A DNA stretch of 34,429 bases from an uncultured Lentimicrobiaceae bacterium (GTDB lineage: Bacteria; Bacteroidota; Bacteroidia; Bacteroidales; 4484-276), in contig CAZBDF010000002.1 in NCBI GenBank assembly GCA_964490385.1, positions 1-34,429 on the forward strand, given 5' to 3'. Numbering within the stretch: position 1 is the first letter of the stretch; each line of letters opens with the position of its first letter. Shown here in pieces: positions 2,769 to 19,100 of the stretch. A model generated the notes under the pieces. It worked only from the letters and a program-made list of their open reading frames with translations, was not told the DNA's origin and did no database searches. The position numbers and the translations under genes were made by a program.

Positions 2769-3059
2769 ATGCCAGCAGCAGCAAGGGTAAGTGATATGCA
2801 TGTTTGTCCAATGGTTACGGGATTAGTCCCTCATGTAGGTGGCCCGGCATTGCCACCTGGTGAACCAACTGTTTTAATTGGTGGTTTGCCGGCCCTTCGT
2901 TTGGGAGATATGCTTACCTGTGTAGGCCCGCCCGACACTGTTGTAAAAGGTTCTGCCACTGTAATGATTGGAGGAAAACCTGCTGCACGTATGGGCGATT
3001 CAACAGCGCATGGTGGGAGCATTGTTCTTGGCTGCTTTACTGTAATGATTGGAGGCTGA
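2769..3059 (+). CDS. PAAR-repeat spike-tip protein (Cis10).
   Basis: 96 aa with three PAAR-type motifs (MPAAARVSD, LPALRLGD, KPAARMGD) and the typical size. It is adjacent to the VgrG-like gene. Confidence 0.93.
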   Translation: MPAAARVSDMHVCPMVTGLVPHVGGPALPPGEPTVLIGGLPALRLGDMLTCVGPPDTVVKGSATVMIGGKPAARMGDSTAHGGSIVLGCFTVMIGG

Positions 3060-3060
3060 T

Positions 3061-3486
3061 ATGACCAATAAAAAATCTTTTATAGGGACAGGCTGGAGTT
3101 TCCCACCGGAATTTGATAAATTCCAGAAGAAAATTGTGATGGTTTCTGATGTAGAAGATATTGAACAAAGCTTGAATATCTTACTAAGCACGGCTTTAGA
3201 AGAGCGGGTAATGCAACCAAAATATGGGGCTGACCTGCAAGAATTTGTTTTTGAAACAGCCGACTCAGGGCTCGTTACAAGGCTAACAGATATCGTCAGG
3301 ACAGCAATTATCTATTTCGAAACACGCATCGATCTTATAAGTCTAAAAATCGACACCACCAGGGCATGGGAAGGTGTCTTGCTGATAGAGATTGATTACC
3401 GCGTAAAAATTACAAATTCACGCTTCAATTTTGTATATCCTTTTTATATCAACGAAGGAGTTGACATAAGGGAATTGATAAATTGA
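3061..3486 (+). CDS. gp25-like baseplate wedge protein (GPW/gp25 family; Cis9).
   Basis: Motif IEQSLNILLSTALEERVMQPKYGADLQEFVFE is typical of GPW_gp25. I prefer the ATG at 3061, just after the PAAR stop at 3057-3059, over the TTG at 3049 used by the ORF track. Confidence 0.88.
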   Translation: MTNKKSFIGTGWSFPPEFDKFQKKIVMVSDVEDIEQSLNILLSTALEERVMQPKYGADLQEFVFETADSGLVTRLTDIVRTAIIYFETRIDLISLKIDTTRAWEGVLLIEIDYRVKITNSRFNFVYPFYINEGVDIRELIN

Positions 3487-3503
3487 AACAACAGAATAAC
3501 AGG

Positions 3504-6500
3504 ATGGCAAATAGTGATAATTATAGCATAAAAAATCCATTAAAGCGCGATGGCACAAGTCAGGGCCAGCGGCAACCAGTTGCACTCGATCCTGAATACG
3601 TGAAAGTTGATGAACGTACAATACAGGATTTTATGGTTTTTGCACGCAACTTCGCCAAACAGGTTTACTATTATAACCAAAACAACAAAATCGAGGGCGA
3701 TTGGGAGGATTTCTGGACATACGACATTTCCTTCATCATCGCGGCCATTCAAAAAACCAATCCTCAGGACGATAAACAACGGTTTTTCCAGGTTCAGGAA
3801 TCGAAGCCAAGAGTGGAAGGACTTGCCAAACTCATCCGCGAAATTCTAAACGTGGCCGGGAAACTGGACACCTGGATGCGAAACCTTGTTCCAGCGACTG
3901 ATTTCAGCGATCAAATATCTCGCCTCATCAGGGCCAACCTAAATGTCTTTCTTGGGCAAATCGCGGCTTATGATAAAGGGGCTTATGAGGTTTTAGGTTC
4001 AAAAAATTATCCACGCCCGGATGAAGACAATTATACAACATTTTCTTCCATATGGAAGCTGGGGGATTTTAACAAAATTGAAGCCGACACCAATCTATTT
4101 AGGCAAACATGGGAACCCGCGTTTTCGGATGAACCTCCCCCGAATCCTGATGAAAACGAAAAGATTGAAATTGCCTATGAAAATTTAAAGACTTCCTTCA
4201 ATGAAGTTTTCAATGTCTATTTCCAGGCAATCCGCCAGGCAGCTTCCTGGTTTGATAAAAGTTTACTTGTAAATGATCACGAACCCCATATTGCTTTATT
4301 TATTGCCTTTTTGCGCTTGTACCAGGCAGTTCAGGCCGACATCAATAAAATTACCGAAAAACACCTGGATTTCTACTTCCGGGATGTACTACAACTAAAA
4401 CTTAAACCTGCTACTCCTGACCATTCGCACCTGTATTTCGCCTTGGCAAAACATATTAACGAACACGAGCTAAGCGAGGGAACCCGTTTCCTGGCAGGAA
4501 AAGACCAGAGTGGGGCAGATTTATTCTATTCGCTTGATAAGGATATCGTGTTGAATAAAGCTCAGATCGATAGTCTCCAAACAGTTTTCATCAAAAGGAA
4601 AGAGGATGCAGTACAAAATATATTCGCTGCACCCGTGGCTAATTCATCTGATGGAAAAGGGGCTGAGTTTAGCAATGAAGACGAGGCATCATGGATGACC
4701 TTTGGGAGCAACAAAATGCCTGAAGCTGAAGTTGGTTTTGCCATTGCTTCCAACGAGTTCCTTTTGGCAGAAGGGAAAAGAGTAATCACCCTGACTATTA
4801 ATTATAGTGGTCCGGATTTAACTGAATACTTAAACGGGTTTTTCGATATTTGGTTTAGTGGCGAGGAAGAATTGTTTCAACCAATTAAACCTCCTGTTGT
4901 ACAACACTGCGATAGCCATAATTGTTTTGATCTTGTCATCACTTTGGGGCCTGAAGAACCAGCGATAATTCCATTTGATGAACAAATACTAAAATCAAAA
5001 CTGGGCACACAACTTCCTGTCATGAAAGTGCTGCTTCGGCCACCAGTAAATGATGCAGATTTTAAACTGGACATTATTAAAGATATAAAGATCACCTCGC
5101 TCTCGTTGGATATAGATGTTTCCGGTGTAAACAGCCTGTTGGCATTTAATGATCTTGGCGCAGTTGATCCATCGAAACCCTTTCTTCCATATGGCCCGGC
5201 TCCTGTTGTGGGCTCAAGTTTCTTTATTGGGAGCAAGGAGGCTTTTCAGAAGAACTTGACTAAAATTACCTTGAATTTAACCTGGGAGAATCTTCCTAAA
5301 GTTGGATCGACATTAAATTTTGAAAAACACTATGATGGTTATGACGATCCACCAGCCAATAAATCAAGTTATACATTTAAAACAACTATCTTAAAATCTA
5401 CAGGAGCAAGCCAGCTTACTGATCCCAAGCAGTTTTTTGAAACCCAGGCGATGGATAATAATGGCCCCATTCCTGATCAGTATATTATTGAGTTTGAAAA
5501 TTCTGCTTTGGCTTATCTGATACAAGCAAATGAATTGGAGAAGTATGGACAAAAGCCAGACTTCGGATTTCTAAGGTTGGATTTACAAAGAGATTTTGAA
5601 CATGACCAGTATTCACAGGTATTGACCCGACAAACCATTGCCATGGCAAAATTTGCTGATACTCCTCCCAAAATGGTTGTTGGGGCATATTATTGGAAAT
5701 CAGAAAATGGTGCCCTGAAGCCACAAAAGGCTACCAGTGGAACACTTTATCCTGAAGTAGAAAGTGTAATACAGCCTAACGAACCCTACACCCCAACTGT
5801 CAAAACTATTTCCCTTGATTATGCCTCGAGTGTTGATTTGGGTGCAATTGCGCTTACAAACACAAAATTCATCCATCTTCATCCCTTTGTCAATACCTAT
5901 CAGCAATTTGAAACTGTAGAAAATCTTTCGCTGATCCCTCAATTACATAAAAATACATCTTCCATCCCGCCTATAAATCTGGAAGGTAGCCTCTTGCTTG
6001 GTTTAAAAGATTTAAAATCCAAACAAAGCCTCTCTATACTTTTCCAGGTTGCCGGAAACACCGCCGATGCCGATGTTGATGAAGCAATAGTTCAGTGGCA
6101 ATATTTGTCGGACAACAAATGGGTTGATTTCAAATCCTATGAGATCACTAGTGATACCACCAAGGGACTCGTTGCATCAGGCATCATAACATTCACCATT
6201 CCAGAAGCTAATACAACAGGCAACACGATATTGCCAAACCATCGTTTTTGGTTGCGTGCCTGGGTTGAAAAAGATTCGGGGGCTGTTAGTGAAATAATTA
6301 ATATCCATACACAGGCTGCACGAATTACTTTTCAAAATAACAATAACGATCCTGATCACCTGGACACACCACTCCCGGAAAAAACAATAAGCAAACTCGA
6401 AAATGATGATTCAGCTATTGATAGTATCCATCAGGATTATGCTTCATTTGGAGGCAGGCCCGCCGAGAAAGCGTTAAAATTTTATACACGGGTTAGCGAG

Positions 6501-7235
6501 CGCTTAAGACACAAGGGACGCGCCATTACACTTTATGATTACGAAAGGATTATCCTCGAACAATTCCCTGACATTTATAAAGTAAAATGCATCAGCCATA
6601 CAAACGAAAATGATCAAACGGCTCCCGGACATGTACTCCTGGCGGTCATCCCCGATTTTACCAAAATGACTGCAATGGATAGAGGTCAACCAAAGGTAAC
6701 CAGAGGGCGACTGGATGAGATCAGGAAATATCTGGAACCTAAAAACCCAACATTTGTTGGAACTTTTGCCAATACGGGTGAACCTAAAAAGTACTTACAC
6801 GTGTCAAATCCCAAGTACGAAAAGGTCAGGGTGAATTTTTCGGTTCGTTTCAAACCAGAAGTAACCGCCATTGATTTCCATATAAGGAAATTGAGAAAGG
6901 CCATCATCCGCTTCCTCTCTCCCTGGGCTTACGAGGATGCCGCCGAAATAAACTTTGGAGGAAAAGTATTTAAGTCTTCTATCCTGGATTTCGTAGAAGC
7001 CCAGGAATATATCGATTATGTCATCAACTTTATGATGATGCGCGAAGGTTCCAATGCCGATGTGAATTCAATTGAAACAGATTCAGCCCGTACCATCCTG
7101 GTTCCTGACCAAGAAGACCGTATTGAGATATTCAGTATAAATGAAGCAGACCATTGCCCTACTGAAAATTTAATTTCAGGCGATACCCTGGGATATATGA
7201 CAATTAATGATTTTGAGATAAGGAATGAAAATTAA
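3504..7235 (+). CDS. Large baseplate-J-like wedge protein (gp6/P2 gpJ-like; Cis11).
   Basis: The C-terminal region KGRAITLYDYERIILEQFPDIYKVKCISH...GHVLLAVIP matches the baseplate J/gp47 signature. The N-terminal HEPHIALFIAFLRLYQAVQADINKITEKHLDFYFRDVLQLKLKPATPDHSHLYF fits the putative-baseplate-assembly-protein pattern (..ALl..fa......rlN..p.k....Fl.llg..l.Pa.pa...l.F). The start is ATG 3504; the alternative TTG at 3483 overlaps the gp25 stop. Confidence 0.8.
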   Translation: MANSDNYSIKNPLKRDGTSQGQRQPVALDPEYVKVDERTIQDFMVFARNFAKQVYYYNQNNKIEGDWEDFWTYDISFIIAAIQKTNPQDDKQRFFQVQESKPRVEGLAKLIREILNVAGKLDTWMRNLVPATDFSDQISRLIRANLNVFLGQIAAYDKGAYEVLGSKNYPRPDEDNYTTFSSIWKLGDFNKIEADTNLFRQTWEPAFSDEPPPNPDENEKIEIAYENLKTSFNEVFNVYFQAIRQAASWFDKSLLVNDHEPHIALFIAFLRLYQAVQADINKITEKHLDFYFRDVLQLKLKPATPDHSHLYFALAKHINEHELSEGTRFLAGKDQSGADLFYSLDKDIVLNKAQIDSLQTVFIKRKEDAVQNIFAAPVANSSDGKGAEFSNEDEASWMTFGSNKMPEAEVGFAIASNEFLLAEGKRVITLTINYSGPDLTEYLNGFFDIWFSGEEELFQPIKPPVVQHCDSHNCFDLVITLGPEEPAIIPFDEQILKSKLGTQLPVMKVLLRPPVNDADFKLDIIKDIKITSLSLDIDVSGVNSLLAFNDLGAVDPSKPFLPYGPAPVVGSSFFIGSKEAFQKNLTKITLNLTWENLPKVGSTLNFEKHYDGYDDPPANKSSYTFKTTILKSTGASQLTDPKQFFETQAMDNNGPIPDQYIIEFENSALAYLIQANELEKYGQKPDFGFLRLDLQRDFEHDQYSQVLTRQTIAMAKFADTPPKMVVGAYYWKSENGALKPQKATSGTLYPEVESVIQPNEPYTPTVKTISLDYASSVDLGAIALTNTKFIHLHPFVNTYQQFETVENLSLIPQLHKNTSSIPPINLEGSLLLGLKDLKSKQSLSILFQVAGNTADADVDEAIVQWQYLSDNKWVDFKSYEITSDTTKGLVASGIITFTIPEANTTGNTILPNHRFWLRAWVEKDSGAVSEIINIHTQAARITFQNNNNDPDHLDTPLPEKTISKLENDDSAIDSIHQDYASFGGRPAEKALKFYTRVSERLRHKGRAITLYDYERIILEQFPDIYKVKCISHTNENDQTAPGHVLLAVIPDFTKMTAMDRGQPKVTRGRLDEIRKYLEPKNPTFVGTFANTGEPKKYLHVSNPKYEKVRVNFSVRFKPEVTAIDFHIRKLRKAIIRFLSPWAYEDAAEINFGGKVFKSSILDFVEAQEYIDYVINFMMMREGSNADVNSIETDSARTILVPDQEDRIEIFSINEADHCPTENLISGDTLGYMTINDFEIRNEN

Positions 7236-7247
7236 ATCTATCATATT

Positions 7248-9398
7248 ATGGCATTAATGAGCAGACTTGACCTGGAAGCATTGTTCAAAAATGGGAAAAA
7301 ACCTTCAGAAAAGGATTTCGCTCATTTGATTGAATCGATGCTGAATAAAAGAGACGACCAGTTTATGGGCCGCTGGAAGGCTGGTAAAACATATCGCCCG
7401 GGCGATGTGGTCATTTACAACAGGGGCCTTTGGGAAGTTGCTGATAGCGTTGAAGGTGGAATATGTGCCGCTGAACCTCCCACCAAACCCAATTGGCAGG
7501 AATTGATTATCCTGGAAAGTGATGGCGACTGGAAAATACATAAAGACGATGGCGTGATGTACGCCCAGGTGTACGATCTCATTGGCATTGGCCGGGAATA
7601 TGATCCCGAAAAGGGAGATATGCCGGAAGCTAAAATTGATATTGTTGACGAGGATCGCTCCCGGTTTTTGATTTTCCCTAAAAGCCTCAGTACACCCACG
7701 CTGAGCCTGTTCCAACTGGAAACCGCTGACGGGGAGGGCCCTGAAAGGGAAAAAACATATTTCGTTAGTGGCCTGAACAACCAGGAGGTGAATTTCCTGA
7801 CCGATACCTCCGCCTTTTTGTTCCGCAAAGGTGAATACTGCGAAGACAATGAAGAGGCCAAGCTTTCGGCCAACGACGGGGTGGTACTCATGACAATCCG
7901 TTCGGGAAATTCCGGCTTGGCACAGGTTGGTATTAGTACTCCCAACCCATCGGCCATGCTCGATATAACAGATCAAAACAGGGGGCAATTCCTTTTTAAC
8001 CCTGAAGATAAAACCGACCCTGCCTTTAGCATTATCAACCTCGATCCCGGCACGGACAAAAACTATTTAACTTCAGGTGTAGGCGAGAAAAACGCTGTCT
8101 TTATTTCCGATGCCCCGCGTGGATTTGTTTTCAGGCATGGTGCCGAGTACAATGAATACTGTGCCCACACGGACATTGACCAGAATGGAAAGGGATTAAT
8201 GATCCTGCTATTAGACGAACTGAACAGGACCAGGATGGGAATTGGCACTGAAGATCCCGAAGCATTAATTGATGCAACCGATGATGCCCTGAGCAGGTAT
8301 CAGTTTAATCCCGAGCATAAATCTGAGTCGGCACTCAGCATGACAAATATCGAAGACCCCAACAACATCGAATACTTTGTTTATGGCCTGGGAAAAGAGA
8401 ATCAAGCTAACAACTCTGGAAGCAAAAAAGGTGCGAAATCTAAAGAGCACAAAGATAGGATGGCCATCTTTCTTTCCAATGCCCCGGGAGGATACCGTTT
8501 TAACCAGGGTATATCCCATGATGAATATCTTAAAGATCCACAAATTGACCAGGGAGCAACGCACCTTGTAATTTTAGCCGACGGTAAAACAGGCATTGGT
8601 ACCAAAAAACCTGAAACAAGATTAGAGGTAACTGATGAACAGAAGAGTGGTCGTTTTTTATTCAACGTGGATGAAAAGGCGCCAAATCCGGCAATGGCCA
8701 TTATCAACAACCGGCCCGATACGGGGAAGGCCAATTATTTGACATTGGGAGCAGGAAATAAATCTTCAATCTTTATTACTAATTCTGTTTTCGGCTTTTC
8801 GTTTCGATTAGGGAGCGACATCAACGGGAAAAACAACGATGTAGAAATAGAACAGAAAAGTGAGACACTTTTTAGCATTCGACCGGAATATATCGATTCA
8901 AAAAAAATTGTTCGTCCACGTGAGATGCGCATCTTTCCCGAGAATACCGGGAATATCCCGGGTGAAATTAACATCTCCGGAATGGTGGGTATCGAAAAAA
9001 ACCCGGAGGAATACGAGCTTGATGTGGAAGGCAAGGCCAGGGCCATTGCTTCCTACCTTGTAGCCGATCGTCAGAAGATGCAGGATACTGCCAACATGAG
9101 GGATGTGCTGAAAGATATTCAAAAGGTAATGCCGGTTAGTTTTAGCTGGGATACCAATCATGTTAAAAACGCGCCCGAAGGACCACAGTTTGGATTTGTC
9201 GGGCAGAATTTAGCAGATATTTTTCCTGAAGTTGTACGACAATCAAGCCAGGAAGAAAAAGAGCAGGACGCCTATGCCGTGGCTTACCAAAACATGGTCC
9301 CCGTGCTATTGAAAGCAGTTCAGGAACTCACCACCGAGGTACACGAGCTGAAAAAAGAAATCAAGAAAATAAAAGAAGATCAAGCGAAGAAAGCATAA
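7248..9398 (+). CDS. Tail-fibre protein with a C-terminal intramolecular-chaperone (peptidase S74-like) domain (Cis13-like).
   Basis: - N-terminus: LDLEALFKNGKKPSEKDFAHLIESM, common in Bacteroidota fibre proteins.
- CBM5/12-like segment: WKAGKTYRPGDVVIYNRGLWEVA...PPTKPNWQEL (about 7368-7505).
- Four ~115-aa internal repeats, each bracketed by (I/V)GI(G/S)t..P.a.lD(I/V)tD and containing F(L/Q)FNPE...
- C-terminus: VMPVSFSWDT...GPQFGFVGQNLADIFPEVV...YAVAYQNMVPVLLKAVQELTTEVHELKKEI, matching the chaperone-of-endosialidase domain. Confidence 0.8.
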   Translation: MALMSRLDLEALFKNGKKPSEKDFAHLIESMLNKRDDQFMGRWKAGKTYRPGDVVIYNRGLWEVADSVEGGICAAEPPTKPNWQELIILESDGDWKIHKDDGVMYAQVYDLIGIGREYDPEKGDMPEAKIDIVDEDRSRFLIFPKSLSTPTLSLFQLETADGEGPEREKTYFVSGLNNQEVNFLTDTSAFLFRKGEYCEDNEEAKLSANDGVVLMTIRSGNSGLAQVGISTPNPSAMLDITDQNRGQFLFNPEDKTDPAFSIINLDPGTDKNYLTSGVGEKNAVFISDAPRGFVFRHGAEYNEYCAHTDIDQNGKGLMILLLDELNRTRMGIGTEDPEALIDATDDALSRYQFNPEHKSESALSMTNIEDPNNIEYFVYGLGKENQANNSGSKKGAKSKEHKDRMAIFLSNAPGGYRFNQGISHDEYLKDPQIDQGATHLVILADGKTGIGTKKPETRLEVTDEQKSGRFLFNVDEKAPNPAMAIINNRPDTGKANYLTLGAGNKSSIFITNSVFGFSFRLGSDINGKNNDVEIEQKSETLFSIRPEYIDSKKIVRPREMRIFPENTGNIPGEINISGMVGIEKNPEEYELDVEGKARAIASYLVADRQKMQDTANMRDVLKDIQKVMPVSFSWDTNHVKNAPEGPQFGFVGQNLADIFPEVVRQSSQEEKEQDAYAVAYQNMVPVLLKAVQELTTEVHELKKEIKKIKEDQAKKA

Positions 9399-9668: not shown

Positions 9669-12600
9669 ATGGCAGAACCTATTACCATACCTAAAGACAA
9701 ATCCAGCTTCCCCGAATATCTCGATTTTTTCAAACTCAGGGAATTAGGCCTGGAACATGTACAAAAGCTTGGAAGTGAGCTATGGACAGACTATAACCTC
9801 CATGATCCGGGAGTTACTATTCTCGAGGTGCTATGCTATGCCATTACCGATTTGGGTTACCGTGCTAATTTTGACATAAAGGACCTGCTCGCAAGGAGTG
9901 AACAGGATAAAAATACTTCAATAAAAACTCCTTTTGGACAAGCTCACGACAATAATTTCTACACGGCCGCCAACATATTAGGATGCAATCCATTAACGGT
10001 AAATGATTTCAGGAAACTCCTTATTGATATCCCGGGCGTACGAAATGCATGGCTTGAAAAATCAGCAGGACAGGAAATACGGATAGGTGTTGATAAAGAT
10101 AAAAAAGAACTCTACTACCTTGATAAAAATAACACAAATCAGGAGGATCAGAAAAACAATACTGAAGATACTGTTGAACTGAAAATAAATGGACTTTATG
10201 ATATCTGTGTTGAAATTGAACCCCAACTTATAGTAGATGCTTGTGGCAGGACAGTGATTTCCCAAGAAGACATCATCAAAAAAGTTTATGAAGTATTCCA
10301 CATGCACCGAAATTTATGTGAAGATATAAGGGATGTTGTAATTTATGGTGAAGAGGAAATAGCCATTTGTGCCGATATTGAACTTACTGCCGAAGCTGAA
10401 CCCGAAGAGGTAATGCTGCAAATTTTCCTTCATATCGAGGAATTCCTATCCCCCACCCTTCGGTTTTATACCCTTCAGGAGATGATAGAAAAGGGTAGAG
10501 CTGTTGAGGAAATTTTTGAAGGCCGCCCGATGACGGTTCCAGATATTCAATCTGAAGATGAGAGCATTAAGAACTCCAAAGACTTAAACCTTATCCCCGG
10601 CCATGGATTTATCGATACCGATGAACTGAAAAAACTGGAGCCTCAATCCAGGATACATGTATCGGATATTCATGAAAAAATCATGGATATTGAAGGCGTA
10701 TTGGCGATACACAAATTGGTGCTTGTAAATTACATTAATGATCTGCCACTGACAAAAGGCGAGAAGTGGTGCCTTCCATTGACCAGGGCTTACAGGCCAC
10801 ACATTGGAATCAATTCATCCAAAGTCAATTTCCTGAAAGGGCCGCTTTATTTCTCCTATGATAAAGAAGAAATCAAACAACGCTTTAACCAGGAAAAGTT
10901 TGCAAAAACCAAGGCCAGCCTCGAACCCTACCAGCTCGATCTTTCAATTCCGGGGGGAACCCATCGCGATTTGCTGGATTACACTTCAATTCAACATGAA
11001 TTTCCGCTCACCTATGGCATTGGCAGTGAAGGAATCGCCGACATGCCTACACCAGTTAGGCAAGCAAAGGCACGCCAGTTGAAGGCATACCTGTTATTTT
11101 TTGATCAGATCCTGGCCAACTACCTTTCGCAACTTTCGCATATCAGGGAACTTTTTGCCATGCAATCAGTCCCCGGGAAAGATCAACAGAATGGCTGCCA
11201 CACCTATTTCACGCAAGGATTAGATGATGTGCCGGGGGTAAAAGATCTAATAAAAAATTTCAACACCTGCCATACATCGTGTTCTAACGAAAGATTTCCT
11301 GAAGACTATCCCAGCTACCTGTCATGCATAACCGAAAATAAAAAGGACTACGAAAAAAGGAGAAATCGTTTTCTGGATCACCTGCTGTCCAGGTTTTCAG
11401 AATCGTTTACCGATTACGCGATGCTGGTATATAAACTTCAAAAAGAAAACAGGAACGAGCAGGACATCATCAACAGCAAGGTTTCGTTTTTAGAAAAATA
11501 TCCCGACATCAGCCGTAACAGGGGAAAAGCCTTTGATATGCTTGAGAAGCCGGTTTGGAATACCGAAAATGTGGCCGGGTTAAAAAAGAGGATATCAGCT
11601 TTATTGGGTATTGAAAATGCAAGGCGGGAAACTTTAAGCACGGGCGAAATAGTAGAAGAAGCTGGGGGATGGTTTTATGTTGTAAAGGACAAGCAGGGGA
11701 AAGATACACTGAAAAGTAAGAAATCTTATTTAGACAAACCCTCGGCAGAATCTGCATTCGAAGCCATCCAGGCGCGGTTGAAAGATCAGGATCAATACCA
11801 CGTGCTGAGTTATAAAATACCGGAACTTGATGGATACAGCTATCGCCAGGGCCGGAAAATAAAAGATGTTGTTCAATATGGTTTTGTCTTTGTTGGTGGC
11901 CTGGAAGACCGGGACAGGCCTGAGGTCATCGCCCAAAGTGTTACCAGGTTCGATACAAAGGGAGCGTGCGAAGAAGCCCTTTACAGGTTTATTTGCCAGG
12001 CAAAGTTTAACGATATCGCCTGCAAGGTAGAACAGGAAAAAGAATGTTATGAATATTTGTTATTTGATGCCAGGTATGAAAATATATTTTTCAGGAGTTT
12101 CAAGGGCTATCATACCATCAGCATTTGCGAAAAGGCTTACCGGCTTTTTATCAAAAGTGCAGTTGATGAAAATAAATATGAAGATATTGAGGAGAACGGA
12201 AAATACGGGTTTGAATTATTTAGGACAAGGGCTAAGAAAAAAACTATCGTGGCAATCCATCCTAATTGGTATGAAACTGACCAGGAAAGACAAGACCGTA
12301 AATGGGCCATTATCTATTACCTCGACGAAACAATCCCCGAACCTGAATTTGGAGGGACACCCGGACATTTTGAACTTGTGGTTAAAGATCAGCAGGAGCA
12401 AACTTTACTGATCAGCCCTGCCGAAAATAGCGTCACTTTTTACAAAACCGAGGCCCATGCCCGGCGTGCCTACCAGAAAATACGTCGCAGGGCAAGTGAT
12501 GTAAGTAAGGAATATTACGTTTTGCTTAATGGCCCGGAAGAGGACAAACCCTTCGGTTTTTTAATCTCCGACCGCGACAACACCATCCTTGCCCAACACC

Positions 12601-15600
12601 CTGTGCAATACGCTTCAGAAGCGGAGCGCGCCCTGGCAATTAACATGCTGATGTTTGGAATACGAAATCAAGCTGCCAGCTACCGGCACATGCAGGAAGA
12701 GGAGGGATACAGGTTTGAGTTGTTGGATATGGATCATGTAGTAATTATGCGCGCCGCCGGGTTATACAGCGATGCCGAAGCTTCGGAAGCCGGGTGGAAT
12801 GAATTGCAGGACCAGGCCTGTGCTTACAGTAATTATCGGCTAATCAATGATGAAGGTGCTAAATATCCATTCTCTTTTGAGCTGCTTGGCAAATCAAAAA
12901 ATATATTGGCAATCCATACAAAGTCTTATGCTACCGAAAGCACGCGCGACCTAATGCTCCAATCGGTAATAAATTACTCCTGTTACACTGAATATGATGT
13001 AAATATTACAGGCACTGCCGGGACATATACCTATGCCCTCAAGGGTAAAGATGGAAGAATTCTTTTGGAGAGTGCCGACCGTTTTGCTGATGAATCGACA
13101 GCCAGGTCAGCTTATTGGGAAATGGTGCAACTGGCCAAAGAACATGCAAATTACTTTATAGAGCTACCTGAATTCCGCTTTGAGATAATGAATGAAGATC
13201 ACCAGGCTATTGCCCACCCTCCCACGGATTACAACTTCGTTTCGGTGAACGAGAGGGAAGCGGCGATTGCAATGATTATGGCCTATCTAAGGGACGATAA
13301 GGTAAACTATGAGATCGAAAATGTGAGAGGTTCTTTTTACAGTAAAATTACCGATGGCAATAAAAACCGCTTACTAAAAGGATGCACCTTATCTCCTTCC
13401 CACGAAAAGGCCGAAGTTGAGTTGGAAGCATTAACAGGTAATAAGAACGATGATGCCAGCACGGGCTTTGTGCAGGATCCGAAGTATTATAAGATTTCAG
13501 AAAACCTTAAAAATAATTGCCCTTATGGCTTTTATATTCAAAATGAGGATGGGAACATGCTTGCCCGTCATCCACTTAAATATCATACAACTGATGCGCT
13601 TTACAAGGCACAGCTTAATGTATTATCCTGGGTATCCGACTGGAAAAAGTTGAAGCATGATATCATTAGGCCACATCAGTGGAATGAACTAAAAGACTGG
13701 GATGAAAATGTCTTGCTCATGGTCGATTCGCTGTATCTTAATGACGAGGGGATTGATTCATTCAAAAAACTGGCATCCAAGGAGAAATACTATTCAATCG
13801 AGAACAAAGACAATTTTTCCCAAATCGTTGTCAGGGATCATAACAAAAGATACCTGGCCTATCATCCAAGATATTTTCAAACTAAAAAAGATGCTGAAAA
13901 ATACATCGCGACGATTCTCCTTTTCATCAAGCTGAATGGGGTAAGCTACACGTTTTTTGATACAGAAAAAAGATACACTATTGTAAATGAAAAGGGTGGT
14001 GACTTGCTGGTTTGTGTAAAAGAGATAAGGAATTACAAGGCTGCAACAGAAGTTTTATTGAAAGTGTGTGAGCTGGGAAGTTCAGCAGGAAATTATAAAC
14101 TTGTGCCCGGGCATGAAACTCCTGCTAAAAATGAGAAGGCCGGGCCAGCAGATGACCCCGAGGCCACAGATGAGAATCATGCGACAGATCATCCTGAGGG
14201 CACAAAAACGGAAGTTCCTACCGAAATCCCACACCAGGAAGAGCCAGCCACTTATGGTTTTGAACTATTGAATAATGAAGTCCCCATTGCGCGGAATGTA
14301 AACATTTACAGCAGCGCGACGGAACGCGACGATGCCTTGAAAGAACTGATAGCGATACTACTTAGCGATCATATTCCCTCCAGGCTAACAAGCCGGATTG
14401 AAAAGTTTTGTTACGAACTCACAGATTTCTCAGGCAAAGTATTACTTAGTTCACGCAATTTTAAGGAATTTAATTCGAGGGAGGAAGCCGCTCAAGCAAA
14501 CAATTACAATAAATATTTGGCACTGGCAATAGAAGCAAAAAACTATACATCCCAGTTACGATACCAAAAAGTGCCTGACGAAAACCACGAGCAGTGTTTC
14601 CACTCCTTTCATATTGCCGATCCTGATGCTGCCGATGAATCCACCCTGTTTGGACATCCATCGGAATATACCTGTCAGCAAGGGCGCGATGAAATGATTG
14701 CTACGATAATTATCTTGCTTTCGAGCAAACAATATAATTGCTCCATTGAAGGAATTCCCTGTGGTTTTACTTTTAGCATGAAATTCAAAATGCCTTTCGG
14801 TAGCGACGAAAAAGCAATCAAGGATAAAAATCCAGATCAGAAAGGAAAAATAAGTCGGAAAACAAATGAACAAAGCAATATACTGGTAAAGATTGTTGGA
14901 GCCATTCACTATCCAAGCAGAGGTGAAGCCTGGAAAATAGCCAGTCGTACAGGTGATCTCCTGAAAAACGCGGATCAATATATTGATCCGGGTGTAGAGG
15001 AAGAAGCCATCTGGTTGGTCAAAAATTCAACTGGGGAAACAGTAGCCCGGATATACGCGGATGGTGGAAATGAAGAGGAGGTCAGGGATTTCATCATTCA
15101 TACCATGACCCATTCAGTAGCAGGAATACCTTATAATGTGCGATACCAGGAACGGGCACTTTATTATCAACTTGAAGAAGGCGGCTCTACCTTGTTAAAA
15201 AGCACGAAGGGAATTGATTGTCCCATTTTCGCTCATGGGAACGGATCAACCAATAGCGAGGAAAAGGTAGTTCAGGAACAAGATGCCCATCAAAAAGCCT
15301 GCGAGTTAAGCAACGAAATAAGTGAATATGCACAGCATGAAAAATACTATCGCTTCATAAGTAATGAAGAGGAATGCCTGCATGGTTTCGAGGTAGTGGG
15401 TGGTACCGGCACTTCAATTGCAACGCACGACCATCTGTATTTGAGTAAAGTTGAAAGCAGGAATGCTATAGGAAAAATCATTCAAAAATTAAATAATGAA
15501 GGGATGCACCTGCTTGAGCATATCCTGTTGAGGCCCCGGAATAGTGGTTTGGCCCTCAACGATCAATTAGATATTTCAGGTGAAGAAACCATGTTGCAGA

Positions 15601-16106
15601 GGTCAACAACCGGTATCACTAACATCAGCGAAACCCGCTCAAGCATCAACATAAATGAAAAGCCCGGGCGAAACCCGGAAGCTGACAAATTCTTGCCCAT
15701 ACCCATTTTATGCCATACTGACGATGATAACTTTTGCCCCGAACTTAGCGACCCATATTCATTCCGTGTAACCATAGTATTGCCCTACTGGCCTAAACGT
15801 TTTAATGACCCCGGGTTCAGGGAATTTATGGAAACCACCCTTCGAAGGGAAGCACCGGCTCACATCCTGCCGAGGATTTGCTGGCTGGACACCTGTCAGA
15901 TGAAAGCTTTTGAAAAGGCTTATCAACGTTGGCTCAACACGCTGGATATTCAGAACAAGCATTGCGATGCAACGGCGGCCCGCGATGAACTTATCGAAGT
16001 ATTGAAACAACTCCGAAGTATATACCCCGAGGCACATCTACACGATTGCGAGCAAAGGGGCTTAGATAATAATAAGGTGATCCTCGATCACACCCGATTA
16101 GGTTAA
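9669..16106 (+). CDS. Giant (2145 aa) Cis12-like baseplate wedge protein carrying a central array of ~20 degenerate ~55-aa repeats.
   Basis: - N-terminus: WTDYNLHDPGVTILEVLCYAITDLGYRANFDIKDLL, the HDPG..LE.l.Y..D.L.YR pattern shared with gp6/gp7-type wedge proteins of phage-tail-like clusters.
- C-terminus: MHLLEHILLRPR and DPYSFRVTIVLPYWPKRFNDPGFREFMETTLRREAPAHILPRICWLD, which I recall as typical of eCIS wedge proteins.
- Central ~1280 aa: repeated F.F.l.d..g..la.h...Y.s..eA...i modules (see findings). Confidence 0.6.
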   Translation: MAEPITIPKDKSSFPEYLDFFKLRELGLEHVQKLGSELWTDYNLHDPGVTILEVLCYAITDLGYRANFDIKDLLARSEQDKNTSIKTPFGQAHDNNFYTAANILGCNPLTVNDFRKLLIDIPGVRNAWLEKSAGQEIRIGVDKDKKELYYLDKNNTNQEDQKNNTEDTVELKINGLYDICVEIEPQLIVDACGRTVISQEDIIKKVYEVFHMHRNLCEDIRDVVIYGEEEIAICADIELTAEAEPEEVMLQIFLHIEEFLSPTLRFYTLQEMIEKGRAVEEIFEGRPMTVPDIQSEDESIKNSKDLNLIPGHGFIDTDELKKLEPQSRIHVSDIHEKIMDIEGVLAIHKLVLVNYINDLPLTKGEKWCLPLTRAYRPHIGINSSKVNFLKGPLYFSYDKEEIKQRFNQEKFAKTKASLEPYQLDLSIPGGTHRDLLDYTSIQHEFPLTYGIGSEGIADMPTPVRQAKARQLKAYLLFFDQILANYLSQLSHIRELFAMQSVPGKDQQNGCHTYFTQGLDDVPGVKDLIKNFNTCHTSCSNERFPEDYPSYLSCITENKKDYEKRRNRFLDHLLSRFSESFTDYAMLVYKLQKENRNEQDIINSKVSFLEKYPDISRNRGKAFDMLEKPVWNTENVAGLKKRISALLGIENARRETLSTGEIVEEAGGWFYVVKDKQGKDTLKSKKSYLDKPSAESAFEAIQARLKDQDQYHVLSYKIPELDGYSYRQGRKIKDVVQYGFVFVGGLEDRDRPEVIAQSVTRFDTKGACEEALYRFICQAKFNDIACKVEQEKECYEYLLFDARYENIFFRSFKGYHTISICEKAYRLFIKSAVDENKYEDIEENGKYGFELFRTRAKKKTIVAIHPNWYETDQERQDRKWAIIYYLDETIPEPEFGGTPGHFELVVKDQQEQTLLISPAENSVTFYKTEAHARRAYQKIRRRASDVSKEYYVLLNGPEEDKPFGFLISDRDNTILAQHPVQYASEAERALAINMLMFGIRNQAASYRHMQEEEGYRFELLDMDHVVIMRAAGLYSDAEASEAGWNELQDQACAYSNYRLINDEGAKYPFSFELLGKSKNILAIHTKSYATESTRDLMLQSVINYSCYTEYDVNITGTAGTYTYALKGKDGRILLESADRFADESTARSAYWEMVQLAKEHANYFIELPEFRFEIMNEDHQAIAHPPTDYNFVSVNEREAAIAMIMAYLRDDKVNYEIENVRGSFYSKITDGNKNRLLKGCTLSPSHEKAEVELEALTGNKNDDASTGFVQDPKYYKISENLKNNCPYGFYIQNEDGNMLARHPLKYHTTDALYKAQLNVLSWVSDWKKLKHDIIRPHQWNELKDWDENVLLMVDSLYLNDEGIDSFKKLASKEKYYSIENKDNFSQIVVRDHNKRYLAYHPRYFQTKKDAEKYIATILLFIKLNGVSYTFFDTEKRYTIVNEKGGDLLVCVKEIRNYKAATEVLLKVCELGSSAGNYKLVPGHETPAKNEKAGPADDPEATDENHATDHPEGTKTEVPTEIPHQEEPATYGFELLNNEVPIARNVNIYSSATERDDALKELIAILLSDHIPSRLTSRIEKFCYELTDFSGKVLLSSRNFKEFNSREEAAQANNYNKYLALAIEAKNYTSQLRYQKVPDENHEQCFHSFHIADPDAADESTLFGHPSEYTCQQGRDEMIATIIILLSSKQYNCSIEGIPCGFTFSMKFKMPFGSDEKAIKDKNPDQKGKISRKTNEQSNILVKIVGAIHYPSRGEAWKIASRTGDLLKNADQYIDPGVEEEAIWLVKNSTGETVARIYADGGNEEEVRDFIIHTMTHSVAGIPYNVRYQERALYYQLEEGGSTLLKSTKGIDCPIFAHGNGSTNSEEKVVQEQDAHQKACELSNEISEYAQHEKYYRFISNEEECLHGFEVVGGTGTSIATHDHLYLSKVESRNAIGKIIQKLNNEGMHLLEHILLRPRNSGLALNDQLDISGEETMLQRSTTGITNISETRSSININEKPGRNPEADKFLPIPILCHTDDDNFCPELSDPYSFRVTIVLPYWPKRFNDPGFREFMETTLRREAPAHILPRICWLDTCQMKAFEKAYQRWLNTLDIQNKHCDATAARDELIEVLKQLRSIYPEAHLHDCEQRGLDNNKVILDHTRLG

Positions 16107-16122
16107 TTTAAAATATCAAGAT

Positions 16123-19100
16123 ATGAGTGCTTATACCCAAACCGCGTATCCGTTTTTTAGAAAAGGTCAGGTGCTAAAAAACACCGACCTGAACAACATG
16201 GTCGATTACCTGGATCAGCACAATAGATTTACCAGGGTGCTGGTTGTAGGGTCTGGAATTTTTTCGGGACTGGAAGTTGACCTGGTTTTGGAAGGATCAG
16301 AATATACAATTAAGGTAAGCCAGGGTTTCGGCCTCAGTTCCGATGGTTTTATTATCCAATTGAAAAAGGAGGTTCCCAATATTCCTTTTGAATTCACGCA
16401 TTACCGGAAGTTAACCCTGTCCGACAATGATTTTAAATGTAAGAAACCTGACGGGCCTGATTTACCCGAACCGGTTTCTTTTGATGCTTATGAATTATTG
16501 GAAGATATTGATGAAAATGCTGACACTACAGGTGTCGCACCACTTTACTCCTTGCCCGAGAATCTGGAAACAAACACCCATTTCTGCCTTGTTCTCTGGG
16601 TGTCAAGGGAAGAAAAAGACAGGCCCTATTGCATTGATATTTGCGATGAATCAGGTGCTGACTTAAACTTTACCATAAAACCATTATTGGTTCCGTCGGA
16701 CATTTTCAATACCGCGGATCAGAATGGCAGTGGAGAAAGTACAGCAAATGGTTTTATTGCTCCTCCACAAGTGAAGTTGCGGCCTTTCGGTTACCAGGTA
16801 TCGTCCGTAAATAATCCAATAACTGGGTCGCAAGAGGATATCTCGGTGGTAAATCCTTCGCTGGTTGAAGATCATAACGATTTCCTGGAGAATTATAAAA
16901 GCATTATCCATAAACTCATCAACCAGGAATATACCATCAGCGATGCCTATGATTGGGCCTACAAACATATGCAATGGCTCGGTCTGGAAGGGGATGAGAA
17001 TCCGTTTGCCGATCTTAAGGCAAATCTTAATTCGTTATTGGAGACCTTTTCAGCCCCGCTTATAAACGAGGATGGATCATCACAAAACATCGAAATCCAG
17101 TACCTGTATAGCTACCTGCATGATTTGCTTGGAGCCTATGAAGAATTTGTTAAAATGGCCTGCTCATTACAAACAGCCGTACTTCCACTTGTATGCAAGC
17201 ATGTACGTTATGTTGGGCTTGCAGGGTTTGCCGTAGATGTTGAAGGCCGGGCCATAAATGAAGAAGATTCAAATTGCCGTACAGCTTTTCAATCCTCATT
17301 ATTTTATGAGGGTAACAATTCCAGGATACAGGAGACGGAGTTTTATTTCAAGCGGATGGTAAAATTGGCTACTGATCTTACAATGGTCGACCTTCCTCTC
17401 ACCAAGGCAGCTCCGGAGGATATCGCGAATATCATTGTAACACCTGGACGTACACCATCACTTCCCTTGAGCAAGCAGGCCTTTCCCTATTATTACAATA
17501 ATGATTCAAAGAAATATTGGTCATACCATACGAAAATGGATTGTTTTGACCCAAAGATACTGGGATACAGGGACCACACAATTGATACATTGTTTACGGA
17601 AAACAATCCCTTGTTGCAGCACGACGATGAATTTACTTTTTACCGTGTTGAGGGCCATGTAGGCAAACAGGCTGATGAGGTTTACGATGCCATGAATTTC
17701 TGGGTGAATCAATTCAACCTGCCCTTCGATGTTCAATTTGTAAATCTACTTTCCTTCGATAATGATCTTATTGGATATTATGCCCCAGAACTGGAAATCC
17801 TACAATCCAAATATTCCCAGGTCAAAACTGATCTTATCGGGTATTTGATGGAAAATGATTTTCCTGTCCCCGGAGAAGATGTCCTGCCCGAAAAACTTGA
17901 ATATTTTTTGTGCAAAGCACTCTCGCAGTGGCTGAATAGCCTGAACAATTTTGATGTACCACTAAATGTGGATTGTTTTATTGCAGCTTTTTGGGCGCTT
18001 CAGTTGCACTTTGAAATGGAAAGCGAAACCTTCCGTTATGTCAATTCCTTTCATGAATTTGCTTTGCAACACCCGGGCTTGCTTCACAAGGGAGGGGCTC
18101 CTGCCGGCGGTACACTTGTAATTGTAAATGCCGTTGTCCCAAATGCCTTTGCCAGGGATCTCGTGATACAGTTAGAAAAAGAAAAGAGAAGTGGATCCAC
18201 CTCAGGAAATCAGTCCTCAGTTAAAATAATTCCAGACGAAAGCATCAGGGCACCACAAGGATCTAAACCACTGGGCGATCCCGGTGGTAGGGGATCATTT
18301 AAATCTCCGCCTACCAAAGACCCTGATGCACGCTCATTTACCGGACTTGAAAAAAGGTTTAGGGAAATGTTATCTGAAAACGCCACGCAGGTGGTTGTCG
18401 GGGATTTTTGCCTTCCCTACCGCTGTTGCAACAGCCTCAAAACACCCGAGCCCATGATCTATCTTTTGCCCGATGAATTTTGCAGCAACGATGAAAAAAT
18501 TTATGAAATTTGGACTTACCCCAGGGGCGGGACAATCAGGGGTGTTGTGAACGGGGAAATCCCTGATACAGGAGACTTGCCTGATTATATCAGTTTTGAT
18601 GATGCCCAACGAAAATATTTTTTCCATCCAGTGCAAGTTCCGCTTTCTAATGAGATTAGTGCAGAAGTTGTGATAACATACCATATTGGAAGCCTCACGG
18701 CAAAGTCGAAGCTAATGGTGTATAATAAACCAGGCCTACCTGAAATGAACGTGGGGGAAAATGTGCCAATATATGATAGCCAGTCTGTATTACATGCCCA
18801 AGAAATAACTTTCACAATTGAAAATAACAATGATAGCTACGCGTCTTACTGGATGGTGGATGGGGAACGCGTTGAACCACTTGCAGGAACTCCGGCCAAC
18901 ATATTGAAAAAAACATTTTATTACCACAACAAAACCCAATATGTAGTGTCCCACGTTTTTGGTAACGGTATTTGCGAAACTAAAACGGATGAAATAATTA
19001 ACCTTTGTGAAATGGTGGATACTGTTACAATAAGTATTGGAGGCGAAAAGACTTTTACCGAGAATCCTCAGGAAGATGAATCGTTGGATTTAGATGTCAG

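Follow-up and report, generated by a model that had tools for sequence, protein, structure and literature searches.

We analysed a 34,429-nucleotide stretch of DNA from an uncultured Lentimicrobiaceae bacterium (GenBank assembly GCA_964490385.1, contig CAZBDF010000002.1, positions 1–34,429 of the forward strand), hereafter the window, and in particular a long open reading frame (ORF) that lies within a contractile injection system cluster, alongside Cis11. The ORF list and phmmer searches against all PDB sequences place a Cis12-type baseplate wedge gene of 2145 amino acids (aa) at 9669–16106 on the + strand. The best matches of its product were All3315 of the Anabaena PCC 7120 thylakoid-anchored contractile injection system (tCIS; PDB 7B5H; E = 2.2e-218) and Alg12 of AlgoCIS (E = 9.2e-120), followed by SalCis12 (1.3e-37), Pvc12 (8.1e-21) and Afp12 (6.9e-15). 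A conserved N-terminal wedge core (aa 1–658; 9669–11642, + strand), which comprises the gp6-like part and the start of the gp7-like part, is collinear with residues 2–678 of All3315 and 7–636 of Alg12. A conserved C-terminal domain (aa 1944–2145; 15498–16106, + strand), which includes the motifs LEHILLRP (at aa 1949) and FRVTIVLPYWPKRF (at aa 2032) and has the near-invariant columns, aligns to residues 1185–1331 of All3315 and 768–931 of Alg12. Both ends are thus homologous to the Cis12 of solved systems, and on this homology we identify the product as a Cis12 baseplate wedge protein (gp6-gp7-like). The residues between the two ends showed no alignment to Alg12 and patchy alignment to All3315, and Pfam and NCBIfam searches with the whole protein returned only sub-threshold matches to unrelated families (2OG-FeII_Oxy_3, GPI and PxpA), which we took as noise. 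The closest relatives are Prolixibacteraceae, Saprospiraceae and Lewinellaceae genomes.

The genes around cis12 point to the same system. Upstream, Cis11 (3483–7235, + strand; 1250 aa), the wedge partner carrying the cage extension, matched All3317 over its full length (E = 1.8e-186) and Alg11 (E = 6.7e-137). It is followed by a Cis13-like fibre gene (7248–9398, + strand; 716 aa) of which the first 87 aa of the product match All3316 (E = 1.6e-18); beyond them lies a long fibre-like region with weak matches to Peptidase_S74, an intramolecular chaperone, and to CBM_5_12. Downstream of cis12, a Cis19-like crown or tail-fibre protein of 1526 aa (16123–20703, + strand) matched All3314 (E = 1.3e-50, aa 7–547) and also the Alg19-type protein 9wt0_a (E = 5.5e-22), so that its sequence fits crown and fibre alike. 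In the window the genes run Cis11-Cis13-Cis12-Cis19, just as all3317 to all3314 do in Anabaena, and 7B5H chains are the best solved relatives of Cis11, the Cis13 N-terminus, Cis12 and Cis19.

Between its conserved ends, the window Cis12 carries an array of 22 YegP/DUF1508-like modules, arranged as 11 pairs of a type B and a type A module (aa 659–1943; 11643–15497, + strand) and identified by AlphaFold, Foldseek and profile searches. The array is 1285 aa long, 60% of the length of Cis12. The sequence-only reading of this DNA had proposed about 20–22 modules of 50–60 aa at 11664–15503, which corresponds to aa 666–1945 of the ORF, and all seven module sequences that it quoted, as well as both flanking motifs, are present where it had placed them. 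A hidden Markov model (HMM) seeded on these seven modules gained six more by iteration, and shuffling the segment 20 times gave it no match. To avoid circularity, we also used a profile of 148 modules from homologues, with the window protein left out. This homologue-only profile matched 15 modules within aa 666–1945 but made no match in 100 shuffled versions of the segment or in the N- or C-terminal flank of Cis12, which places the proposed periodicity far beyond chance. Pairwise identity among the modules is only 8–24%, and a DNA tandem-repeat search found no repeats, indicating that the duplications are old.

We modelled the array in two AlphaFold2 runs, each with an alignment of 57 homologues. 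The model of aa 655–1230 (predicted local distance difference test score, pLDDT, 91.3; predicted template modelling score, pTM, 0.71) contains 10 modules and that of aa 1225–1950 (pLDDT 86.4, pTM 0.72) contains 12, which together make 22 successive strand-strand-strand-helix modules with a median helix-to-helix spacing of ~54 aa, bearing out the count and size first read from the letters. The helices of modules 1–11 start at aa 690, 764, 817, 871, 928, 984, 1036, 1090, 1142, 1193 and 1245, and those of modules 12–22 at aa 1308, 1354, 1406, 1456, 1550, 1604, 1670, 1751, 1802, 1863 and 1927. Seven modules that were undetected by any HMM (e.g. 3, 11, 19, 20 and 21) share the fold in the models. 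The pTM values of 0.71–0.72 over segments of 576 and 726 residues suggest a fixed packing of modules in the models, rather than beads on a string.

The pairs follow one another along the + strand. The first consists of module 1 (B, aa 659–701) and module 2 (A, aa 710–779, with a low-confidence loop at aa 720–730) at 11643–12005, with HMM matches at aa 666–711 and 737–782. The second, at 12021–12323, joins module 3 (B, aa 785–831), seen in the structure model only, to module 4 (A, aa 837–885), which the HMM matched with E = 5.9e-8. Model and HMM together support modules 5 (B, aa 892–942) and 6 (A, aa 950–999) at 12342–12665, modules 7 (B, aa 1004–1049) and 8 (A, aa 1056–1104) at 12678–12980, and modules 9 (B, aa 1110–1156) and 10 (A, aa 1160–1207) at 12996–13289; the same holds for the pair at 13305–13634, where module 11 (B, aa 1213–1256) was seen in the model only and is followed by module 12 (A, aa 1274–1322). 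Modules 13 (B, aa 1329–1369) and 14 (A, aa 1375–1421) at 13653–13931, with orthologue alignment occupancies of 0.59 and 0.50, and modules 15 (B, aa 1427–1469) and 16 (A, aa 1476–1565) at 13947–14363, with occupancies of 0.49 and 0.28, come from the model. Module 16 is interrupted, between its strands 1 and 2, by an acidic P/E/T-rich disordered loop (aa 1484–1519; 14118–14225, + strand; pLDDT <50), confirming the acidic linker that had been read from the sequence. This loop is the sole long disordered stretch in the models and has an occupancy of 0.07 among 56 orthologues; as judged from that alignment, it is specific to this lineage. Further on, modules 17 (B, aa 1569–1620) and 18 (A, aa 1626–1684) at 14373–14720 have model and HMM support, modules 19 (B, aa 1691–1764, with a loop at aa 1709–1737) and 20 (A, aa 1770–1815) at 14739–15113 were both seen in the model only, and the pair at 15144–15497 consists of module 21 (B, aa 1826–1888) and module 22 (A, aa 1894–1943; HMM E = 6.6e-8), the latter adjoining the conserved EG.HLLEHILLRP motif.

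The resemblance of the modules to YegP (UPF0339/DUF1508), proposed from the residue pattern, was upheld by profiles, by predicted fold and by orthologues. A Foldseek search of the PDB with the first AlphaFold model returned 7B5H chain AD at the top (E = 5.7e-12), together with Escherichia coli YegP (2K8E; probability 1.00, template modelling score, TM, 0.74 normalised to YegP, root-mean-square deviation 2.1 Å over 106 columns) and SO_3888 (2K49; TM 0.73); all lower-ranked matches had probabilities of ≤0.3. The YegP superposition spans the whole two-domain protein, with one module pair. With the second model, these three again led the specific matches, YegP having probability 1.00 and TM 0.47. 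Similarly, a profile of 13 window modules matched YegP (2k8e) on both halves with E = 2.7e-7, and 2k49 with E = 0.01, and the homologue-only profile matched 2k8e (1.1e-7), 6q2z (1.6e-4), 2k49 (0.033), 3bid (0.31) and aa 598–633 of Alg12 (E = 0.04). In these profile searches no unrelated family reached a comparable score. The modules are thus homologous at profile level to solved UPF0339 proteins and, in the predicted structures, form ~50-aa strand-strand-strand-helix domains in tandem pseudo-dimers. A comparison with Pfam PF07411 gave a divided answer: orthologues exceeded the gathering score (P0002 with 32 bits, P0007 with 41.9 and P0013 with 51.2), whereas the window protein had no match. 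Only 1 of 13 individual window modules reached E = 0.026, 21 of 148 homologue modules had E ≤0.1 (best 3.2e-6), and the PF07411 label is precomputed on most top-ranked homologues among those listed. The YegP/DUF1508 assignment is sound at the superfamily level, and the window copy is too diverged for the curated Pfam model.

It is hardly credible, given these results, that the repeat is unreal or not YegP-like, whether as a chance pattern in a biased linker or as an assembly artefact that fused unrelated sequence. The missing DUF1508 match of the window Cis12 and the low identity between modules would fit such an account, but it is contradicted by the 15 real matches of an independent profile against none in 100 shuffles, by the high-confidence periodic models and by the specificity of the YegP matches in both Foldseek and profile searches. 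Moreover, >100 independent proteins and genomes show this architecture, and a 97%-identical copy of the window Cis12 (P0001) is found on one separate metagenome contig.

We compared 1649 modules in 121 proteins and found that two types alternate, type A with the signature ...A.HP..Y.T..ERD.A... and type B with the signature ...LL.S...Y.....A..A.... Among neighbouring modules we counted 452 BA, 388 AB, 38 BB and no AA combinations, and the order in the window Cis12 is (B-A) x 11. Spacing did not locate the junction within the unit, since the A-to-B and B-to-A medians (53 and 54 aa) are uninformative. The B-type HMM scored domain 1 of YegP/SO_3888 higher and the A-type HMM domain 2, with differences of 2–10 bits, so that a correspondence of the B-then-A order to YegP domains 1 and 2 is suggestive only. 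Tandem DUF1508 domains have been described as forming a symmetric pseudo-dimer (bioRxiv 10.1101/2024.11.21.623966). The repeat unit of the array is the two-domain B-A pair, each equivalent to one whole YegP, present 11 times.

YegP (2K8E) and the UPF0339 proteins 2K49, 6Q2Z and 3BID share with the window modules the fold, the ~106-aa two-domain unit and the signature (profile E ~1e-7). By contrast, YegP-type proteins are free-standing and 60–130 aa long, whereas in the window the fold is a building block of a 2145-aa structural protein. To our knowledge, DUF1508/YegP is a widespread domain with solved structures and no known function. Among the matches listed in a full-text literature search for DUF1508, YegP, UPF0339 and PF07411, none concerned contractile injection systems, and in a viral fold library the YegP-like entries were all small phage proteins (~100 aa), with no array among them. 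'Extended arrays' of DUF1508 have been noted (bioRxiv 10.1101/2024.11.21.623966), and in a scan of 1.84 billion representative proteins we observed separate, very acidic DUF1508-array proteins of 870–1030 aa. These free-standing proteins (P0146, P0152, P0157 and ~15 others) have, in the sequences read, an N-terminal multi-helix membrane region followed by 11–13 near-identical repeats (W-R-W-R-L), and their composition suggests a haloarchaeal origin. P0146 resembles the window Cis12 in its long tandem array, the free-standing arrays showing 11–13 matched stretches, but it has an N-terminal DUF7139 membrane domain, no Cis12 domains and at least seven canonical repeats (243 bits with Pfam). Free-standing arrays consist of near-uniform canonical repeats, in contrast to the two diverged alternating types of the window, and carry no link to injection systems in their sequence.

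The sequence-only reading offered no known case of a long module array inside a baseplate protein, yet a shorter homologous array is present in the solved Anabaena baseplate (7B5H chain AD). All3315 belongs to the same family as the window Cis12 (E = 2e-218) and has modules of the same type at the same site: the homologue profile matched nine stretches at aa 640–1165 (E = 1.9e-53), in keeping with the Foldseek match to the same protein (E = 5.7e-12), and its neighbours are likewise Cis11, Cis13 and Cis19. The two differ in that Anabaena has ~9–10 modules in roughly 500 aa, compared with 22 in the window array, and a Cis13 of 154 aa with a transmembrane helix, compared with one of 716 aa without; the hosts are cyanobacterial and Bacteroidota-type, respectively. 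In the tCIS, the Cis12 extension (aa 610–1100) was called an 'extra domain' and makes up six 'wide connectors' of ~5 nm x 2.5 nm reaching the thylakoid membrane, each beside the narrow connector made by Cis13; cyanobacteria often retain this extension along with the Cis13 transmembrane helix and the Cis19 crown (Weiss et al. 2022, PMC8894136). Repeats, YegP and DUF1508 are nowhere mentioned in that paper. Set against the tCIS class, the window system has the Cis12 extension homologous to aa 610–1100 of All3315; it lacks the short Cis13 with a C-terminal transmembrane helix, having one of 716 aa, and a cyanobacterial thylakoid host, since a type-9-secretion sorting domain typical of Bacteroidota flanks the cluster. 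The array is an enlarged peripheral part of Cis12, built of YegP-fold domains, homologous to the Anabaena connector and more than twice its length.

As a separate observation on the Anabaena protein, aa 872–891 of All3315 were proposed to be a 'putative amphipathic helix' for contact with the thylakoid membrane (PMC8894136, Supplementary Fig. 8). We found that aa 861–885 align to module positions 4–27, which places this region inside a YegP-like module. By this alignment, the putative helix may simply be the strand plus helix of a module, rather than a membrane-binding element.

We next compared repeat number among Cis12 orthologues, using the best 120 protein homologues and 57 of the 79 genome loci recovered by an alignment query; a genome scan with a single N-terminal query sequence had found no relatives. 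Orthologues fell into three size classes. The short class has a Cis12 of 850–1000 aa with 0–2 modules at aa 600–730 and no Cis13 (Tenacibaculum, Chitinophaga, Sunxiuqinia, Desulfobacterales and others). The medium class has a Cis12 of 1230–1350 aa with 6–9 modules detected and a Cis13 of 150–154 aa (Nostoc, Calothrix, Aulosira and Pseudanabaenaceae). The long class, to which the window belongs, has a Cis12 of 2020–2470 aa with 16–25 modules and a Cis13 of 555–716 aa, and occurs in Saprospiraceae, Lewinellaceae, Prolixibacteraceae and other Bacteroidota genomes, as well as in Leptolyngbya and Elainellales.

The short class bears on the origin of the array. Short Cis12 proteins in 30-odd genomes have their modules in the order B, then A-like. 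Alg12 (Algoriphagus machipongonensis; 7AEB, 9WSZ) shares the N- and C-terminal domains of the window protein and has a module at the same site (aa 598–633), but is 933 aa long, with a single module pair and no Cis13; its first module aligns to window module 1, and it also aligns to the motif just past module 22. Hence, the array was read correctly as an array but not as an insertion: because short Cis12 already carries a B-A unit at the site, the array has expanded from that unit and is not foreign sequence. Sequence comparison shows that it grew by units added between the first and last ancestral domains. One orthologue (P0002) differs from the window Cis12 by an indel of ~116 aa, the size of two modules. 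Orthologous long arrays align module for module at 30–45% identity, and two of them (P0023 and P0032) align to the window Cis12 over their full length at 32–34% identity. Modules 1–12 and 17–22 are present in most long-class orthologues, whereas modules 13–16 are variable and account for most of the variation in length, with occupancies of 0.28–0.59 among the 56 orthologues.

Some individual loci deserve mention. One Lewinellaceae genome (HK-STAS-BACT-32) has both a long Cis12 of 2266 aa with 21 modules (L001) and a short one of 972 aa with 1 module (L054), so the classes coexist and have not simply replaced one another. One Bacteroidota genome (P01_H01_bin.12) has two different long-array loci, with Cis12 proteins of 2105 and 2359 aa (L004 and L009). 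The cultured Neolewinella marina MKG-38 (L061; NZ_PDLO01000011.1, 31932–58690) has a Cis12 of 2254 aa with 13 HMM-detected modules and a Cis13 of 584 aa. In a fragment of a close homologue (P0138), aa ~45–135 form a canonical YegP-like pair (DUF1508, 93.6 bits in two stretches) that interrupts the array between the counterparts of window modules 7 and 8, which, going by its sequence, suggests that arrays can gain near-canonical units or that some units stay near the ancestral sequence.

The length of Cis12 varies together with that of Cis13. Across 49 loci the Spearman correlation between the two was 0.82, a statistic that ignores phylogeny, and the short Cis13 of 150–154 aa was confined to the class with 6–9 modules. 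We infer the function of the array by analogy, and judge it somewhat more probable than not that it is a structural strut or connector working with the Cis13 fibres at the periphery of the baseplate. This is the most economical reading; fibre length changes in step with the array. Cis12 is present as six chains in 7B5H and 7AEB, which would give six arms per baseplate, each the enlarged counterpart of an Anabaena wide connector and, at a pTM of ~0.7, largely rigid. Such arms would determine how far the baseplate periphery reaches, and in what geometry, with respect to the surface that the fibres contact, and might themselves touch a target surface, a host membrane or adjacent particles. The array connects at either end with the wedge core, at neighbouring points of the sequence, so an arm would have to leave and return at one place; its path is probably an out-and-back hairpin, with the variable modules 13–16 and the acidic loop at the far tip. 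In AlgoCIS, the gp7-like part of Alg12 is lateral and exposed, binds the Alg19 fibre and has been called an evolutionary hotspot (PMC8894135, PMC13314943). Of the three roles first suggested for the array, an extended arm, a cage or a spacer, arm and spacer fit the Anabaena precedent, whereas the cage does not, being built by Cis11 in related systems (PMC8894135).

We considered the cage separately and rejected it. The AlgoCIS cage is made by Alg11, not Alg12 (PMC8894135), the cages of AlgoCIS, the tCIS and Aureispira are all Cis11 extensions, and the Cis11 of the window is full-length and homologous to All3317.

If the machine were not released from the cell, the six arms might instead fasten the baseplate to a membrane, either internal or cytoplasmic, so that the array would be a membrane anchor as in the Anabaena tCIS or in type-iv type VI secretion systems (T6SS-iv). 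The near relationship of Cis11, the Cis13 N-terminus, Cis12 and Cis19 to the 7B5H chains, in the order all3317–all3314, is in favour of this, as are the thylakoid contact of the homologous, shorter Anabaena extension and the use, by Aureispira among other Saprospiraceae relatives, of a T6SS-iv that is membrane-anchored and shows six anchoring densities; the supplement of the Aureispira paper contains nothing on Cis12. However, neither Cis12 nor Cis13 of the window has a membrane-spanning-like segment (no 19-residue hydrophobic window was above threshold), and the array has a net charge of −47, which together argue against direct membrane insertion. In addition, where the anchored cyanobacterial class has its defining Cis13 transmembrane helix, the window system has a ~700-aa fibre whose weak, chaperone-type Peptidase_S74 C-terminus is typical of free fibres, sfGFP-Cis12 of Anabaena was cytoplasmic in E. 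coli (PMC8894136), and the host is no thylakoid-bearing organism. We therefore consider a membrane anchor unlikely.

Alternatively, the array might not be a passive strut but serve chiefly for multivalent binding, as an adhesin or receptor-binding device for a ligand that is nucleic-acid-like or belongs to a target cell. Its peripheral, exposed position would suit such a role, and so would the variable modules in mid-array and the lineage-specific acidic loop; pairs of DUF1508 domains have been compared with the PC4/Whirly single-strand-binding fold, with a suggested role as sensors (PMC12065111), and the cages and fibres of related systems bear carbohydrate-binding modules. On the other hand, modules 1–12 and 17–22 correspond one-to-one between distant orthologues and show no hypervariability, DUF1508 proteins have no known ligand, the array yielded no binding-site motif, and dedicated fibres, Cis13 and Cis19, are encoded next to it. 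A binding surface as the main function thus seems quite improbable.

Returning to a strut that works with Cis13, several points weigh against it. The Cis12–Cis13 correlation reduces to three clades or classes and ignores phylogeny, and two loci (L015 and L025) are exceptions without a detected Cis13. The Anabaena extension that serves as precedent was only partly modelled, and its function is a putative one (PMC8894136). The out-and-back hairpin is drawn solely from chain topology and from where orthologues vary, and the occupancies come from a MAFFT alignment of repeats that may be locally wrong. Finally, PF07411, which has a gathering score of 22 bits, gave no match to the window Cis12 at E ≤1.

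The remainder of the window holds further genes of the cluster and its flank. Upstream of Cis11 lie tube (244–966), spike (963–2735) and gp25 (3049–3486) genes; a PAAR-like ORF of 96 aa (2769–3059, + strand), identified by eye from the sequence, overlaps the start of gp25 by 11 nucleotides. A tape measure gene is at 20725–22584, and the locus further holds two eCIS_core proteins and an AAA ATPase. A ParA/MinD-type ATPase (27320–28090, + strand; AAA_31, E = 1e-60) is encoded between the eCIS_core (PF13699) genes at 23053–27294 and 28095–28796. ParA-like proteins usually position cargo or large assemblies. The larger eCIS_core protein (23053–27294, + strand; 1413 aa) has a net charge of +28 and one membrane-spanning-like hydrophobic stretch near aa 1111–1130, and could, to judge by its sequence, be an effector or a cargo-loading protein. 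At 30638–32746 and 32861–34414 on the − strand are two tandem paralogues with Peptidase_C10, CUB and type-9-secretion sorting domains. These genes adjoin the cluster and probably do not belong to it, and their sorting domain indicates a Bacteroidota host.

In the literature that we searched, neither a long-array class nor a YegP nature of the Cis12 extension is described, although databases already label many of the homologues PF07411. Here and in Anabaena, the YegP fold appears as the unit from which a peripheral baseplate connector is built, a concrete structural role for a fold that had been a functional orphan. The arms would be more than twice as long as any studied and are tightly linked to a long Cis13 fibre, which predicts a baseplate architecture that has not yet been imaged; at least one cultured species, N. 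marina, has a long-array Cis12. It is conceivable, if rather doubtful, that the Cis12 array and the Cis13 fibre are a length-matched pair that evolved stepwise (none, ~9 and ~22 modules) and sets the distance or tethering of the baseplate to a surface, the long class being a third, unseen architecture or mode of action. If so, in Bacteroidota and some filamentous cyanobacteria six arms of tens of nanometres might hold the machine fast in the cell, connect machines in arrays or control firing. Modules 1 and 22 may also re-form the ancestral YegP-like pseudo-dimer, closing the array into a hairpin with modules 13–16 and the acidic loop at its tip. If the length-matched pair holds, the 20-year-old DUF1508/YegP fold would also gain a defined role for the first time, that of a structural brick that can be stacked. 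The modular build suggests that arm length could be tuned by two modules at a time, which may be of use in engineering. More broadly, the periphery of Cis12 has been proposed to be the site at which injection systems evolve new modes of action, whether released, membrane-anchored or arrayed.

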